From assembly GCA_016926395.1 (NCBI GenBank), contig JAFGOT010000010.1, positions 1 to 64,000 on the forward strand: a stretch of 64,000 bases of DNA, written 5' to 3'. Position numbers and translations under genes: made by a program. Each line of letters begins with the position of its first letter. The stretch's first letter is position 1. The DNA is from Candidatus Woesearchaeota archaeon (GTDB taxonomy: Archaea > Nanobdellota > Nanobdellia > Woesearchaeales > SKGA01). Positions 8,602-53,861 of this stretch are shown here, in pieces. The notes under the pieces are model-generated. The model was not told the DNA's origin. It made no database searches and saw only the letters and a list, made by a program, of their open reading frames with translations.

Positions 8602-11015
8602 TGTTCTGTTTCATTTAATTCCACAAATTTTGGTAGCAAATCTGCTCTATATTGTTTTGTTATTTCACCTAATTTTCCAAGGTTTTGTAATGAATCAATA
8701 TTTACAGGAGGCGGGAATTTGAACAGCGTTATAACCAATTCATTACTAGTGTTGCAAAGGTCACTTCTCGATAGCGCCCACGGCAAGTCTTCACTAAATT
8801 CTAGACCTCCCCAAGTTGCAGGTTTTATTTCAATTGGATCATCAGGAATATATTCTTCTTCTTCAGACATAAACCAACAATCAATACCATCACACACTTT
8901 TTTACTATCTTCTGGAACTACAACACCATTCGAATCAATTAACATTCCATTAATCAAATATTTTCCAGAGACTAAATCAACATTTTGAATTGCTGTAGAA
9001 TTATTTGCAAGTATAAATTGTGAATAAGGTGACAAATCACCCTCTTTAGTGATTTTTGTGAAAAATATTACTGCTTGTTCACTTGGAGTAATGTTTCTAA
9101 GAACGGTTATTTCTACATAATCTGTTTCAGATATATCTACACCAAACAAACCTGCAACATATTCATTCGTCATTCCTTCAATCCCGTCTTCATTATACCA
9201 CCAATTATCTTCACTATATGCTGAACCGCCATTTTTATCAATAATTATTTTTTCTAAAACTTGAATCTTGACTTTTTTATTTACAATCTTATTCATACCA
9301 TATGAACCAAAGTCTTGTTCTTGACCTTCATATGTTGATAAAGGAACATAAGTATCTTGATAACCTTCTTTTTTTAGTACTAAGTAACCATTGTTAAATA
9401 CAGGCAATTGTGAGTTAAATACTGCATTTCCATAAACATCAAATTGAGTCATTCCTATTCTTTTTTGTGCATAATCTGATACTCCTGCCGAAACAAACAC
9501 ATCACCAAGTGGTTGACCATTACAAGTATCGTATGCAGAAATAGTAACGTTTCCAGATGTGTAAAGTGTAGGATCGGAAAACATTTTTTTTACAGGATCA
9601 TAACCTACAATCTCTCCTGGTTTTGTTGTTTGTGAAACAGAGTCTCCAGGATTAGTATATTTTATCATGTTAGGATCCCATTCAATTGGGCCTTTATTAT
9701 TTTGATAATCTTGATTATTCAAATTATTTCTAACGTTTGCTTCCATCCCAAATAAAAACGAGTAAGTGCTTCCATCAGGCAAACCATCATCCACTAATTC
9801 TACCACAACAGGATAAGTTACATCATAAAAGAAATTATAATATGTGTCTGATTCTGGAGCTCTCATAATAAAACCATCTAACTCTTCAGGTATTATTGTA
9901 ATTATTTCTCCCGAACTTGTTGGTGAAGTGACTTTAGAATAAATATCCCAATCTAAAAATATGTGATTTATTGATAAATTATCTTTTGGAGCTACAATCG
10001 TCGATAAAATAAATGAATTGTAAAATTCTTTTTCTTGTTCTGACATCTTAGGATCATCTAAATACCAAGCATTATCAGTATCTTCAAACCTAAATAAAGG
10101 AACGTAGGAATCAAGTAAACTTCTAAGTTGATTGTTTATTTGCATTTGTGTCCAAACAATAGCGCTGTTATCATTTGTATACATACTTAAAGGAGGTAAA
10201 GAACTTGAATCTATTCGTCCATAATAGCTTGCTAAGTGAACAACTAAATTTTCTAAGTATTGAGAATTGTATTCTTGGTATAAAATTAGTGACGCTTTAG
10301 TTAAGTATTCTAATAATGGAACAGGATCTCTAACAATAAATTTTTCAAATTCTTGAGTTTGACCGTCTTTTTCCAAAACTAGTCTCATCGTTGTTTTTAC
10401 TGCCACATCATCTTCAGTTAAAAGTGCTTGTGAACTTGGTTTCTCATATTCAATAACATCAAATCCTAAATTAGATAATGCTGAAAAATTATTCAAACAA
10501 GTATCTAAGTTATCATCAACATATTTTTCTATTTGCCATTGAACTTCAGATGCAGTTGGAACTGTTAACTCAACATCTAAAAAGTCTTTTTCAACACTTG
10601 ATTTTGATTTTATCCAATAAGGAACAAACGTTGAGTCATCAGATCCTAAAAGAACTCCGTCATTATTTCCTGTCTGTCCTTTATTGTAGCTAAAAAACCC
10701 TTCATACTCAGGGTTAAATGGGTCTATATAACCCCCATGAGATCCTATTAAATTTAGTGCTTCTCTAGACACTTGTCCCATACATAATTCTACATAATCT
10801 TGAACTGGCTTAAATGAAGGTTTAGCAGAGGTCACGTCTTTTGCAAAATCATCCACGGCCACGGATTGATTATTTTGAGTGAAAAAAAAGAATCCTGCTC
10901 CAACTAATAAAACAATTCCTATGATTACAAATATAGTTACCTGTGCTTTTCTACCACGTGGAAATACACAACCAAGGGCATTATTTTTTTGTTTGCAAGC
11001 TTTCTCTTCTGTCAT
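8598..11015 (-). CDS. Large prepilin-like (KAQ) surface protein
   Basis: RGRKA/QVTIFVIIGIVLLVGAGFFFF matches a class III signal-peptide pattern; 805 aa; carboxypeptidase-regulatory-like beta segment (YLVLKKEGYQDT). Confidence 0.7.
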   Translation of the reverse strand: MTEEKACKQKNNALGCVFPRGRKAQVTIFVIIGIVLLVGAGFFFFTQNNQSVAVDDFAKDVTSAKPSFKPVQDYVELCMGQVSREALNLIGSHGGYIDPFNPEYEGFFSYNKGQTGNNDGVLLGSDDSTFVPYWIKSKSSVEKDFLDVELTVPTASEVQWQIEKYVDDNLDTCLNNFSALSNLGFDVIEYEKPSSQALLTEDDVAVKTTMRLVLEKDGQTQEFEKFIVRDPVPLLEYLTKASLILYQEYNSQYLENLVVHLASYYGRIDSSSLPPLSMYTNDNSAIVWTQMQINNQLRSLLDSYVPLFRFEDTDNAWYLDDPKMSEQEKEFYNSFILSTIVAPKDNLSINHIFLDWDIYSKVTSPTSSGEIITIIPEELDGFIMRAPESDTYYNFFYDVTYPVVVELVDDGLPDGSTYSFLFGMEANVRNNLNNQDYQNNKGPIEWDPNMIKYTNPGDSVSQTTKPGEIVGYDPVKKMFSDPTLYTSGNVTISAYDTCNGQPLGDVFVSAGVSDYAQKRIGMTQFDVYGNAVFNSQLPVFNNGYLVLKKEGYQDTYVPLSTYEGQEQDFGSYGMNKIVNKKVKIQVLEKIIIDKNGGSAYSEDNWWYNEDGIEGMTNEYVAGLFGVDISETDYVEITVLRNITPSEQAVIFFTKITKEGDLSPYSQFILANNSTAIQNVDLVSGKYLINGMLIDSNGVVVPEDSKKVCDGIDCWFMSEEEEYIPDDPIEIKPATWGGLEFSEDLPWALSRSDLCNTSNELVITLFKFPPPVNIDSLQNLGKLGEITKQYRADLLPKFVELNETEQ

Positions 11016-50252: not shown

Positions 50253-50335
50253 ACAATAAACTTAGAACTTATTCTTTTTAAATATGTTGTTTAATTTTCA
50301 AAGCAACGTTTATAAGTTGATTTTAATTCTTAATT

Positions 50336-50783
50336 TTGTAGGGGTTGTATGTCAGTTCAGGACATATGTCTTAGGAAAGTCCGCCCACCAAGTCATAGGA
50401 ATTTCAATCTCTGATTGCTAAAACCAATGACGAGTTGGCTCAATTTACTTGAGAATCATAATATGGTTGGCAACCGTACAGAAAAACACTCCTTTTGGAT
50501 TATTAGTTTTTGGTATTGATAAAGAACATTTATCATAACAGAAACCAATGCACAACACAAAAGTAATTTTGTCGTTGATGTATGGAATGATGAGCGCGAA
50601 GCACTTGGCGACAAGTTGTGAGTTAACCCTCGGACGTCTCCAAAAGTGAAGATGAAAAGTGCGTCCCCAATTGGTGCAAGTCTGTATAGGCGCTTAGTAG
50701 AATCTGGCAATTTGATATCGCACGTGCTTGAAAAGTGGCATTTGTTTGATCATCACAGAAGGCGGCTTATTCAATCTCTACAA
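50336..50783 (+). ncRNA. rnpB: Ribonuclease P RNA (archaeal type, atypical structure)
   Basis: CR-I AGGAAAGTCCGCC (50373-50385) and CR-V ACAGAAGGCGGCTTAT (50755-50770) form P4. P1 TTGTAGGGGTTG/CAATCTCTACAA; P2 GTCAGTTC/GAATCTGGC; ACAGAAA, TGAAA and GGTGCAAG conserved segments. TTTATAAG box at 50309-50316. Ends approximate. Confidence 0.9.
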
Positions 50784-50784
50784 T

Positions 50785-52881
50785 TTATTTTTTAATAACT
50801 TCTAAGTCTTCAGAACCTTTTTTTCTAGATTCTTCAAATTTCGAAAATCCAACCACTAATCCACCAATTAAAGGAATGAACAATAAAGGCAAAAGCGTTC
50901 TCCAGTCAAAATCAGGTTTTACATCATCTGATAAAAGAATGGTGTTCCCTGTTAGACTAACATTTTTCTCAACTCTATAAGAAAGTTCCACAGGTTCGTC
51001 AACGTTTTCTAAATGCCACATTATAACAGGATCGTCTTCCAATATTATAGGTTGTATGCTATAAATTAAATCTTGAGCACTCAAAGCTACTTCTTTTGGA
51101 ATTACTTCAACAACATCTATACTGGTTTGATTTTGAATTGGCTCTACACGTATAACCACTTTTGTTGAGATATCTTCTTGAGTTTTTTCTGATTTTTTTT
51201 CTTCTTGTTCATAAACTACTTTTTTCTGAATACGGACTTTTTCATTTGCTTTCTCTTGCTGTTGGTTTATGTTTGTTTTTAGAACTTTTTCTCTTTGGAG
51301 TATTTTTGTTAAGTCATCTCTTGATTGGTTTGTTAAATTTACACTTGGTGTTTCTATTTTTGATTCTGTTATTTGCGTAAAATTTCGTGGTTCATTTGTT
51401 TCAATTCGTATGATTTTTTCTGGTTGTTTAGCTACTAGCTGTGTTGCTTTTTCAGGAATTTTAACTTTTTCTTTCAAGGTATCACCAAATCGTTCAACAG
51501 AATACTTTGAAAGGTTTGTTTTGTTAGCTAACGTTTTTTCTTGAGTAGGTAATTGTTTTATTAAATATAACGTGCTATTATCGTCAGTTATTTTAACAGG
51601 AGTTGAAATAATTGTAGAATTTTGAGTTGTGTTATTGGTTATGTTTTCAAAAGTTAAATCATCGTTTGTTGTATTAATTGTAGAGTCATCGTCTTGTGTC
51701 TCGTTCGTTATATTAGTAGTTGAATTAATTTCAGTTGGATTTATTGTTGTGTTAACAACGCAAACACCATTACAAATAAAATCTTCTTTACAATAATACA
51801 TTTGATTATCGCAAAATTCTCCAGCACCAACAATCACCGGTTGAGAGTTGGTAAGGCTTAACTCGCAAACACCATTTAAGCATGCTAAGTTATCACCATC
51901 ACATTTATAATTCTGGTTATTACAATATTCTCCAAGACCCACATAAAAAATATTATCAACTAAATTTTTACAAATATAATCAGCGCCACATTCCAAACCA
52001 ATCGCACAAACTTCATATTCTTCGTAACAAGATTCTCCATCGTTTTTTGTTATTAGTATATGTTTACAGATATTATCCCTACAAATATACCCTGATTCAC
52101 AAGGCAGACTTGTTGATGAGCATGCCAAACCTGCAAGAATGTATTTTGTTTTACAAACATTATTCATACACACTTGATTAATAGCACACGAGGGACTGCA
52201 ATAATCTAAAGGATAAACTTTCACTCCAAAAGTATTTATTTTTTCTCCTGAGAGGTACAAATTAAACAAAGTATCCTTTTGTATTGAACAATGAAAAATT
52301 TGCTCTTGAGTAATTTCATCAATATTATTTGTTTCAAAAGAACAAGCAGGATCTAAAGATAGTTCTCGTAACTCATCAGATACTTGTCTTGTTTGAATGT
52401 TAAACTCTTTCCCTATAAAAACATATTCAGGGCTGTTTGTATCAACGGTTGTTTTTAGTGTCGTTTCAACAATTTGAACAGTAAAATGTATTATTTCTCC
52501 ATTTATATTTCGAAGACCTATCTGCGAGTCTTCATTCAGATTTATTGCCCACCTAGCAACCACTCCATCCGCAGAGACGGCCATGGATTCAGGAGAATAT
52601 GTCTTTCCATCTAAAGATGCAAGTTCAAAGTTATTTTTTGCACTTGCTCTTGGAGCAGATAAAGAAACTGTCAAAACATCCCCTTCGTTAAGAACTGTTA
52701 AATAAGTTAGAGTTAATTCGTTTTGACCAATAACCGGATCAATATATTTTACTACACTTTGCGTATAACCTTCAGTCTTTGTCGGGTTAGAATTAACAGT
52801 TATCAGTGCATTGACTAAAAACAATGTAAGTAGAAAAAAAAGTATAAAAAATAAAAATATAAAACTTTTTTTACGATTCAT
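50785..52881 (-). CDS. Surface glycoprotein-like protein: Cys-rich repeats, N/T-rich linker, shared C-terminal module and TM
   Basis: Signal peptide; five G-x-x-C-x5/6-C-x4-C-x3/4-C units; many NxT sequons; EVIPKEVA...ILEDDPVIMWH...LTGNTILL; TM. Confidence 0.75.
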   Translation of the reverse strand: MNRKKSFIFLFFILFFLLTLFLVNALITVNSNPTKTEGYTQSVVKYIDPVIGQNELTLTYLTVLNEGDVLTVSLSAPRASAKNNFELASLDGKTYSPESMAVSADGVVARWAINLNEDSQIGLRNINGEIIHFTVQIVETTLKTTVDTNSPEYVFIGKEFNIQTRQVSDELRELSLDPACSFETNNIDEITQEQIFHCSIQKDTLFNLYLSGEKINTFGVKVYPLDYCSPSCAINQVCMNNVCKTKYILAGLACSSTSLPCESGYICRDNICKHILITKNDGESCYEEYEVCAIGLECGADYICKNLVDNIFYVGLGEYCNNQNYKCDGDNLACLNGVCELSLTNSQPVIVGAGEFCDNQMYYCKEDFICNGVCVVNTTINPTEINSTTNITNETQDDDSTINTTNDDLTFENITNNTTQNSTIISTPVKITDDNSTLYLIKQLPTQEKTLANKTNLSKYSVERFGDTLKEKVKIPEKATQLVAKQPEKIIRIETNEPRNFTQITESKIETPSVNLTNQSRDDLTKILQREKVLKTNINQQQEKANEKVRIQKKVVYEQEEKKSEKTQEDISTKVVIRVEPIQNQTSIDVVEVIPKEVALSAQDLIYSIQPIILEDDPVIMWHLENVDEPVELSYRVEKNVSLTGNTILLSDDVKPDFDWRTLLPLLFIPLIGGLVVGFSKFEESRKKGSEDLEVIKK
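51760..52200 (-). repeat. Five ~26-aa four-Cys (EB/Dickkopf-like) protein repeats
   Basis: AGLACSSTSLPCESGYICRDNIC; DGESCYEEYEVCAIGLECGADYIC; LGEYCNNQNYKCDGDNLACLNGVC; AGEFCDNQMYYCKEDFICNGVC. Bounds approximate. Confidence 0.7.
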
Positions 52882-53861
52882 TTTTTCTTCCTAGTATTAA
52901 TAGTGCCAAAGTAAATTATAATCAAAACAACCAAAGGAATTAAGATTAAAGGCATCAATATTTTTTTTAAATCTGTTTTGTCTTGTTCATTAATTGCACC
53001 AACTAACAAAATGGTATTCCCTGTCAAATCTTCATCTACCAAACCTTCTTTTTCAATTTCATAAGATAATTCATCCGTGTTTGAATCTTCAATGTGCCAC
53101 ATTATTAATGGATCATTTTCAAGAATGGTTGGTTCAACTGAAAAATGAATTAAAGAAGCGTCTTGTGCAACAGATTTATCAATATTTTCTATAATATATA
53201 TTTCGTTGTTCTTGGCATTATCTAACTTGAAAGTGGTTTTAGATTTTGTTATAATTAAATTTCCTTCATAAGTTAATACTTCTTTCTCGGTCTCTTTTGT
53301 TATTTTTGTCGTTTTAGCATTTTCTATCATTAAAGCAAATTCATCCTCAGATATATCAATTCCTTGTTCTGATAATTTTTCTCGTATTTCAAAAGAGTTT
53401 TCTGGTATTTCAATCGTTAAAGGAATTGTTTTTTCAACAACATTTCTATCCAATAAATCTCTTGCTTTTACATTTAAGGAAAAATTATTTTCGTATTCAA
53501 TTTGATTATCTGATTTTATCGCAAAATCAAGATCTAAACTTTGCGTAGCATATATTGGCCATTCAAATATTAAATAAGATTCATTTCCAGGAGCGTCATC
53601 TAAAGCATAAAAGTCTTTGTCAAGCTCAACACCATCCACGCTTAAAGTCAAATCACCATTAAAACCTGTTTTTGGGAAAAACATCGCGCCAGCCACTATA
53701 TTGCTCTTTTCTAATGTGGAATTTGGTATGCTCAAATATAATAAACCTGAATTAACAGATAATAAATCTCCATTTTCTAGGAAAAAATTGTAATCTAACG
53801 TTTGAGCCATAACTGCTGGCGCCAATAGAATAATCATCAATAATACAACTAACCGTCTCAT
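52878..53861 (-). CDS. Surface protein with the same C-terminal module and TM
   Basis: Signal peptide AVMA/Q; ENIDKSVA...ILENDPLIMWH...LTGNTILL; TM followed by RKKK. Confidence 0.75.
   Translation of the reverse strand: MRRLVVLLMIILLAPAVMAQTLDYNFFLENGDLLSVNSGLLYLSIPNSTLEKSNIVAGAMFFPKTGFNGDLTLSVDGVELDKDFYALDDAPGNESYLIFEWPIYATQSLDLDFAIKSDNQIEYENNFSLNVKARDLLDRNVVEKTIPLTIEIPENSFEIREKLSEQGIDISEDEFALMIENAKTTKITKETEKEVLTYEGNLIITKSKTTFKLDNAKNNEIYIIENIDKSVAQDASLIHFSVEPTILENDPLIMWHIEDSNTDELSYEIEKEGLVDEDLTGNTILLVGAINEQDKTDLKKILMPLILIPLVVLIIIYFGTINTRKKK

Follow-up and report, generated by a model that had tools for sequence, protein, structure and literature searches.

The window, a 64,000-nt stretch of DNA from a Candidatus Woesearchaeota archaeon, encodes at positions 50338 to 50781 the catalytic RNA of a ribonucleoprotein RNase P, and this RNA very probably joins the reduced C domain typical of its order to two peripheral modules added in its own lineage that resemble expansion segments. 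What appears to be new is a helix in J5/7 and an insert at a junction of P12; the combination of helices that forms the backbone is known.

Identity and limits of the RNase P RNA gene

Searching the window with Rfam (cmscan, E-value thresholds) revealed a match of the full archaeal RNase P model RF00373 (model positions 1-288) to 50339-50780 of the forward strand with 78.7 bits and an E-value of 7.9e-22 (1.7e-22 against the whole genome), and within the Rfam clan the archaeal model is the best match for this stretch. A preliminary description made from the letters of the window had read an unannotated RNase P RNA of about 445 nt here and had proposed a search with the archaeal covariance model; that search bears the reading out, with a gene of 444 nt and a score just below the gathering score of 84 bits. 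At gathering thresholds, Rfam reports a single tRNA in the window and nothing else. The RF00373 match is the only one, and the gene therefore single-copy, in the 1.02-Mb, 40-contig, 82.5%-complete genome. The gene and its flanks are as follows, the two flanking elements having been read from the sequence.

50309..50315, forward strand: TTTATAA, resembling a TATA box, some 26 nt 5' of the first P1 base
50338..50781, forward strand: RNase P RNA gene, 444 nt from first to last P1 base (RF00373 match; covarying core helices in the family alignment)
50784..50793, forward strand: T-run TTTATTTTTT, 3' of the last P1 base

The alignment to RF00373 departs from the model in four lengths, with about 41 additional nt after the 5' strand of P5, 122 additional nt within P12, 41 additional nt between the 3' strand of P2 and ACAGAAGG, and 33 fewer at P15-P17 (3 nt versus 36 in the model). 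These length differences, not mismatches in the core, are the reason that the score lies below gathering, and the same cut-off of 84 bits is missed by 7 of the 18 family members, namely the window RNA and 6 of its 17 relatives. The position of TTTATAA would fit an archaeal promoter and the T-run is a likely transcription terminator. Three short ORFs had been placed on the RNA (50284-50421, forward, 45 aa; 50456-50710, reverse, 84 aa; 50646-50795, forward, 49 aa), and because the full-model match covers the stretch we regard them as spurious gene-caller artefacts. The interval 50338-50781 is thus a real and correctly delimited RNase P RNA gene.

Two adjacent, overlapping genes lie 3' of the RNA on the reverse strand (50785-52881, 698 aa; 52878-53861, 327 aa) and encode exported proteins. 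At the C-terminus both have the same block (I/LLE-DP-IMWH-E...ELSY...LTGNTILL) with a membrane anchor behind it, and they appear to be paralogous surface proteins.

An intact core that covaries across the family

The core helices and conserved regions (CR) of the RNA are listed here, with pairing and covariation in the family where given.

50338-47 / 50772-81, forward strand: P1, by pairing
50350-55 / 50704-09, forward strand: P2, 98% paired, 6 of 6 pairs covarying
50359-72, forward strand: P3 hairpin
50374..50389, forward strand: CR-I, with the 5' strands of P4 and P5
50377-85 / 50761-68, forward strand: P4, with U50380 bulged, 100% paired
50386-89 / 50673-76, forward strand: P5, 98.6% paired
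50433-38 / 50667-72, forward strand: P7, AGTTGG / CCAATT
50439-53, forward strand: P8 hairpin, between P7 and P9, from sequence inspection
50454-68, forward strand: P9 hairpin, 85% paired, 5 covarying pairs
50469..50489, forward strand: 5' strands of P10 and P11 with CR-II (ACAGAAA), from the Rfam alignment and invariant columns of the family alignment
50639..50676, forward strand: 3' strand of P12, CR-III (GAUGAAA) and the 3' strands of P11, P10, P7 and P5
50692..50709, forward strand: CR-IV and the 3' strand of P2 (50704-09)
50755..50781, forward strand: CR-V (ACAGAAGGCGGCUUA) with the 3' strand of P4, and the 3' strand of P1

All five conserved regions are intact (CR-I, GGAAAGUCC; CR-II, ACAGAAA; CR-III, GAUGAAA; CR-IV, CUUAGUAGAAU; CR-V, ACAGAAGGCGGCUUA), as is the P4 pseudoknot, and the full S domain is present from P7 to P12 with CR-II and CR-III. 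The preliminary description had listed P1-P5, P4 included, as intact, had given P7 as above and had placed two hairpins, 50439-53 and 50454-68, at the positions of P8 and P9, and each of these can be followed in the sequence.

Of 41 related genomes, 39 contain one RNA matched by RF00373, and all 18 species of the family have one, with lengths that range from 310 to 448 nt within a single genus. Aligning the 18 family species (alignment A2) revealed 82.9% paired cells for the core structure versus 69.6% in shuffles and 57 core pairs changed on both sides versus 39, while slid controls reached 36-48% paired. None of 500 shuffles reached the observed score, and the collection of homologues and covariation analysis that the preliminary description had called for therefore come out in favour of the core helices. 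Within this alignment the base of P12 is 95.8% paired (7 of 8 pairs covarying), P12.1 94% (3 of 3) and P15 93%, and P19 stands at 100% and 94.5%; one pair of P4 switches between G-C, A-U and G-U within the family. P7, P8, P12.2 and the inner parts of P1 and P3 come out lower because MAFFT misaligned helices of variable length. A much longer P3 (GGAGAUCUUUUUUUCAAAGAGAAGGAUCUUUU) is seen in the 5' part of the RNA of one congener (locus L039 of genome G009), which adds P3 to the places where the RNA has expanded in the genus.

A short P15 and a reduced C domain throughout the order

The C domain is reduced around a single short hairpin.

50680..50691, forward strand: P15, 4-bp hairpin GUCU-GUAU-AGGC with a 4-nt GUAU loop, directly followed by CR-IV

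There is no L15, P16, P17 or P6 in the window RNA, and sequence and Rfam alignment (the 3 nt noted above) agree with the earlier reading of a 4-bp P15 that leaves no room for P16, P17 or P6. The same short P15 was found wherever it could be read, both among 39 RNAs from the order and among 73 other contigs of Woesearchaeota and Nanoarchaeota MAGs; its order-wide form is GCAAGUC-loop-GACG, with a median of 16-17 nt from J5/15 to CR-IV. Since the short P15 is general across the order, a reduced C domain is what the clade normally has and not a peculiarity of this gene. A short, capped P15 also means that there is no L15 for pairing with the 3'-CCA.

Evaluating the RNA against the described types, we found a mixture of their features. 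Type A possesses L15, P16, P17 and P6, and type M lacks these and P8 as well (PMC4919922), with P19 listed for archaeal type A and absent from type M, and P5.1 listed for bacterial type B only (PMC2858038). With type A, which makes up most of RF00373 and includes Pyrococcus and Methanothermobacter, the window RNA shares P1-P5, P7-P12, P8, P19, a P12 extension that has a K-turn and ends in a GNRA loop, and the set of protein partners, in which Rpp30 is a weak candidate; it has neither the internal loop L15 nor P16, P17 or the pseudoknot P6. It lacks L15, P16, P17 and P6 as type M does (Methanococcales, A. fulgidus), but it retains P8, which is present in the relatives too. Type T/P of the Thermoproteaceae is missing most of the specificity domain, which is full here, and bacterial type B, whose P5.1 loop docks on L15.1, is matched by a helix at the P5.1 site but not by P15.1 or P10.1, both of which are absent.

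A variant of type M that has P8 is known from Archaeoglobus profundus, A. veneficus and Ferroglobus placidus (PMC3579882), and everything in its description was found in the window RNA: the loss of L15, P16, P17 and P6, the short capped P15, P8, and a standard S domain with a K-turn extension of P12. The window RNA differs from that variant by P19, a 40-nt J5/7 helix and an 82-nt two-arm P12 insert, all of them additions beyond the description. The variant belongs to the Archaeoglobaceae; because the host here is a DPANN archaeon instead, the reduction of the C domain was probably independent. In a 2026 survey of 298 archaeal RNase P RNAs, P16 and P17 were lost independently in many archaeal lineages and P19 was sporadic (PMC12974513). 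The same survey recorded expansions at the tip of P12, and archaeal deletions generally without coinciding new expansion segments (PMC12974513). The literature that we searched contained no description of Woesearchaeota RNase P RNAs.

The backbone is therefore a known combination, a type M-like C domain with P8 and P19, and typical of the order. The preliminary description had proposed that the RNA fits neither type and may be an undescribed subtype. Its first half stands, as the RNA is neither textbook type A (no L15, P16, P17 or P6) nor type M (P8 present). Its second half does not hold for the backbone, which is order-wide and matches the published type M with P8 plus the known P19; the unusual remainder consists of the J5/7 helix and the P12 insert, and both vary between species of one genus.

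P19 and its internal loop

The additional 41 nt between the 3' strand of P2 and ACAGAAGG form a hairpin that the preliminary description did not list.

50713..50752, forward strand: P19 hairpin, 40 nt, with outer stem UGAU/AUCA and inner stem 50721-28 / 50737-44

P19 has been recorded for archaeal RNase P RNAs (PMC2858038, PMC12974513), and in 91 Woesearchaeal RNAs (alignment A1) its pairing reaches 93.3%, each of its 12 pairs has changed on both sides, and the covariation score is 0.943, versus 0.254 in shuffles and no more than 0.214 for slid partners. Among the RNAs sampled across the order, P19 is missing only from that of G036 and probably from that of G037, where the stretch from CR-IV to CR-V has only 49 nt. 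A scan of named genome contigs with a P19/CR-V motif pattern returned almost only MAGs labelled 'Candidatus Woesearchaeota', 'Nanoarchaeota' and 'Nanobdellota', and on this basis the genome belongs to a Woesearchaeota-type member of the DPANN.

Between the two freely covarying stems, most Woesearchaeal RNAs carry a 4x4 internal loop, in the window AUCG 50717-50720 opposite UUUG(G) 50745-50748. Most rows of A1 were chosen with a pattern that included an AUCG/UUYGR loop and left the stems outside, so the conservation of the loop in A1 is partly by construction; the AUCG/UUUG loop also occurs in 18 of 18 family members, a sample taken independently of the loop. The loop may be a binding or docking motif. 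Among the relatives compared we saw no link between its occurrence and that of the J5/7 helix.

An extra helix in J5/7

50392..50431, forward strand: extra J5/7 helix, 40 nt at the P5.1 position; GUCAU/AUGAC, GG/CC and CAAUC-UCU-GAUUG

Folding this segment gave a three-part hairpin with a minimum free energy (MFE) of -9.2 kcal/mol and a z-score of -2.93, matched by 1 of 200 dinucleotide shuffles, in line with the helix of about 40 nt (GTCAT 50392-96 / ATGAC 50427-31) that the preliminary description had drawn between the 5' strands of P5 and P7. A J5/7 hairpin of 12-47 nt occurs in roughly 30 of 93 RNAs, and in most RNAs J5/7 has only 5-9 nt (for example AUAAAA); these frequencies are approximate, as the automatic assignment of P7 was wrong for several sequences. 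The helix is absent from the congeners G006, G010, G011 and G012, and likewise from most of the order's families with this reduced C domain. Neither its sequence nor its loops are conserved, and no loop motif is common to the species, though the base stem of G001, G003 and G013 shows compensatory changes. In its place, a minor strain in run X2 carries a hairpin that is shorter and unrelated in sequence.

Bacterial type B RNAs (Bacillus, Geobacillus) likewise have a hairpin, P5.1, between the 5' strands of P5 and P7, and likewise lack P6, P16 and P17 while keeping P19 (PMC5066622, PMC12974513). In contrast to type B, the window RNA has no P15.1/P18.0 partner, no conserved loop and no P10.1, and helices of its kind occur in only about one third of relatives and are lost within a genus. 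Homology of the J5/7 helix with bacterial P5.1 is excluded.

A two-arm insert between the base of P12 and its K-turn

P12 holds the larger of the two modules, in the following order of parts.

50490-99 / 50639-49, forward strand: P12 base stem, 10 bp with one bulge, enclosing 139 nt
50500..50581, forward strand: 82-nt insert on the 5' strand, between P12 base stem and K-turn, made of arms A and B
50502-49, forward strand: arm A, with inner hairpin 50517-35 (UGAUAAA/UUUAUCA)
50550-81, forward strand: arm B, 13 bp with a GUAA loop, including ACAAAA-GUAA-UUUUGU 50557-72
50582..50638, forward strand: conserved P12 extension (K-turn, P12.1, P12.2)
50586-91 / 50632-34, forward strand: K-turn, AAU-GA-U / G-GA, C/D-like, with AAU bulge, G50589.A50634, A50590.G50633 and a U.G pair
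50592-96 / 50627-31, forward strand: P12.1
50603-16, forward strand: P12.2 hairpin, ACUUG-GCGA-CAAGU with a GCGA loop

The preliminary description had given P12 as 50492 / 50646 around 139 nt; the stem and the 139 nt hold, and 50646 is the end of the 3' strand rather than its start. Its sub-hairpins GATAAA/TTTATC, CAAAA/TTTTG and ACTTG-GCGA-CAAGT were recovered at 50517-35, 50557-72 and 50603-16. The TGATGA segments that it had called K-turn-like are borne out in part: one C/D-like K-turn is present at 50586-91 / 50632-34, and the second TGATG, at 50576-80, is base-paired within arm B in the predicted fold, so we rejected it as a second K-turn. The 82-nt insert folds with an MFE of -20.3 kcal/mol (z-score -3.96; 0 of 200 dinucleotide shuffles as good), and P12 as a whole has a z-score of -2.86 against dinucleotide shuffles.

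The layout of the conserved extension follows the archaeal P12 extension of PMC6565675 and PMC5499556. In Thermococcales, Methanococcales and Methanobacteriales, P12 has a double K-turn and a GNRA cap (PMC5499556), whereas only one canonical K-turn is visible in the P12 of the window RNA; we claim no double K-turn because the position equivalent to the second one, KT2 (UGG / CGU), is without G.A pairs. Across the family there is likewise a single canonical K-turn, and the KT2 position is a non-canonical loop, which is the site of the insert. In the M. jannaschii structure, the P12/P12.1 junction is where L7Ae and a C-terminal helix of Rpp21 are located (PMC6565675).

Contigs from run X4, which belong to other species, join ...TCCTTTTGGA directly to ATGGAATGATG, and on this basis we set the borders of the insert at 50500 and 50581. 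The P12 module, from CR-II to CR-III, has 172 nt here versus a median of 91 nt in 45 RNAs and is the third largest among them, behind G005 and G008; the automatic anchors gave all four segment lengths for these 45 of 101 RNAs, and frequencies derived from them are approximate. The insert is absent from 17 of 17 other family species. Where congeners have extra RNA around P12, it lies in J11/12 just 5' of P12 (G001, G002, G005, G007, G008, G009, G012) or distal to the K-turn (G006), and expansion between the P12 base stem and the K-turn was found in the window lineage only. P12 is the usual site of lineage-specific growth, as with ES5.1 and ES5.2 at its tip and the enlarged P12.1/P12.2 of haloarchaea (PMC12974513). 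In contrast to ES5.1 and ES5.2, the insert of the window RNA lies on the 5' strand from the base stem to the K-turn, where it creates a four-way junction. No description of this insert or of the J5/7 helix was found in our literature search.

Beside the K-turn, on the 3' strand of P12, lies a palindrome, GACGUC (50633-50638), that is nearly invariant in the family (TGACGTC) and has no obvious Watson-Crick partner on the 5' strand. RNase P of M. jannaschii is a dimer, and by analogy the palindrome may have an intermolecular role.

That the RNA belongs to a distinct structural subtype, in which the P12 arms would stand in for KT2, the proximal member of the euryarchaeal double K-turn, is in our estimate unlikely. 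Such a subtype would account for the J5/7 helix at the topological site of P5.1, co-occurring with the loss of P6, P16 and P17 as in type B (PMC12974513, PMC5066622), for an insert at the non-canonical KT2 position of a family with one canonical K-turn, and for an arm B loop that stays GNRA in variants (GUAA to GCAA). Against it, the J5/7 helix is missing from four congeners and most families with the same reduced C domain, its loops lack a common motif and a P15.1-like partner, and the P12 insert is unique to one lineage, with congeners expanding at other sites. Because both modules vary between species of one genus, we read them as lineage-specific expansion segments and not as marks of a subtype; their sporadic distribution points to tolerated or mildly stabilising peripheral RNA rather than to a new structural class.

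The inserts in DNA and RNA contigs

Both inserts are present in DNA contigs of two samples (X1 and X2). A 381-nt metatranscriptome contig from a different study (X3) covers 50353-50732 with five substitutions and without gap or joint, staying inside the gene and spanning both inserts. Two further RNA libraries add to this, as X8 (about 93% identity) spans the whole P12 insert and X4 carries related versions of the RNA. Transcript ends cannot be read from such contigs and carry-over of DNA is possible, and we take X3 and X8 as supportive rather than decisive for inserts that are kept in the RNA.

The substitutions within the P12 insert fit the proposed arms and two GNRA loops. They turn G50518-C50534 into G-U, U50511-A50540 into U-G and A50505.C50546 into A-U, and change the loop of arm B from GUAA to GCAA; U50510G breaks a U.G pair. 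All are single-sided, with no double compensatory change, and covariation for the 82-nt insert is thin. The second GNRA loop, that of P12.2 outside the insert, goes from GCGA to GUGA in a variant strain. Two exact-pattern scans of metagenome contigs for closer relatives, using patterns specific to the inserts, gave no match.

It is very improbable that the inserts are foreign or removable DNA, either copies of a small mobile hairpin element or spliced, intron-like sequences, even though the differing insert sites of the congeners would suit several insertion events independent of one another. A BLAST search of the whole genome with both inserts returned chance matches of 14-31 nt only and no other copy, the two best being chance AT-rich matches in coding-like sequence; the lack of a further copy speaks against a multicopy mobile element, and we rejected a mobile-element origin on these grounds. 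Splicing was rejected as well, since X3 runs without a joint through both inserts and the apparent skips in X4, which stem from other species, have different letters between their two sides. Inspection of the insert borders by eye revealed no bulge-helix-bulge motif.

Protein partners and tRNA genes

The inventory of RNase P proteins and HARP that had been suggested alongside the first reading revealed Pop5 (52 bits), Rpp21 (46 bits), Rpp29 (54 bits) and L7Ae (46 bits), all above their Pfam cut-offs, and a candidate for Rpp30, the only Rpp30-like ORF, at 19.2 bits versus the PF01876 cut-off of 35. A search for PIN_5/HARP gave no match in the 82.5%-complete genome.

Contig C4 of the genome (G000), 10135-10764 (L051:1135-1764): Rpp30 candidate, 209 aa

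Rpp30 may have diverged strongly in this lineage; alternatively, the true gene may be in the 17% of the genome that is unassembled. ARAGORN found 23 tRNA genes in the 82.5%-complete genome, about 17 of them without an encoded CCA, and some tRNAs may be split, intron-containing or unassembled. Mostly CCA-less tRNA genes fit an enzyme without the CCA-binding loop of L15, a match that has been argued for M. jannaschii (PMC6565675).

A gene in decay or without function, with tRNA 5' ends made by something else, would explain an Rfam score below the gathering threshold in a genome that is incomplete, yet we give it next to no credence. The low score is due to the inserts, all conserved regions and the P4 pseudoknot are intact in what is the only copy, protein partners are present, Rpp30 as a candidate, HARP was not found, and contigs from RNA libraries cover the gene.

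What the expanded RNA means for archaeal RNase P

In the reading that we favour, expansion of an order-typical ribozyme, the C domain would have the reduced layout general among DPANN of the Woesearchaeota/Nanoarchaeota type, with P19 stacking beside P2. The lineage would then have added a hairpin in J5/7, the topological site of bacterial P5.1, and a two-arm insert at the junction of the P12 base stem and the L7Ae-binding K-turn. We infer that both modules act like expansion segments, folded and retained in the mature RNA, and that pointing away from the active site and the tRNA would make them tolerable; any contribution of theirs would probably be to folding or stability, not to chemistry. 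'Neutral and peripheral' is an assumption here, because the site of the insert is the one at which Rpp21 and L7Ae touch the RNA in M. jannaschii (PMC6565675).

A bolder reading, which we think improbable, takes the RNAs of the genus as a natural series that has repeatedly gained hairpin modules at permissive sites (J5/7, J11/12 and the P12/K-turn junction), some of which would have architectural jobs, a P5.1-like brace standing in for the lost P6 pseudoknot and a four-way junction for the proximal K-turn of P12. If true, it would be an archaeal counter-example to the generalisation that deletions come without new expansion segments (PMC12974513).

Because the window RNA and 6 of 17 relatives fall below the gathering score by their inserts alone, standard pipelines would report their RNase P RNA as missing, and some of the absences of RNase P RNA in DPANN may be of this sub-threshold kind. 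One genus offers 14 natural versions of a ribozyme, whose lengths run from 310 to 448 nt and whose inserts occupy defined sites, and this series of congeners maps where the archaeal holoenzyme tolerates extra RNA, including the junction at which Rpp21 and L7Ae meet the RNA in the structure from M. jannaschii. An archaeon that has lost P6 and carries a helix at the P5.1 site is a test case for RNA compensating the loss of RNA in a protein-rich RNase P.
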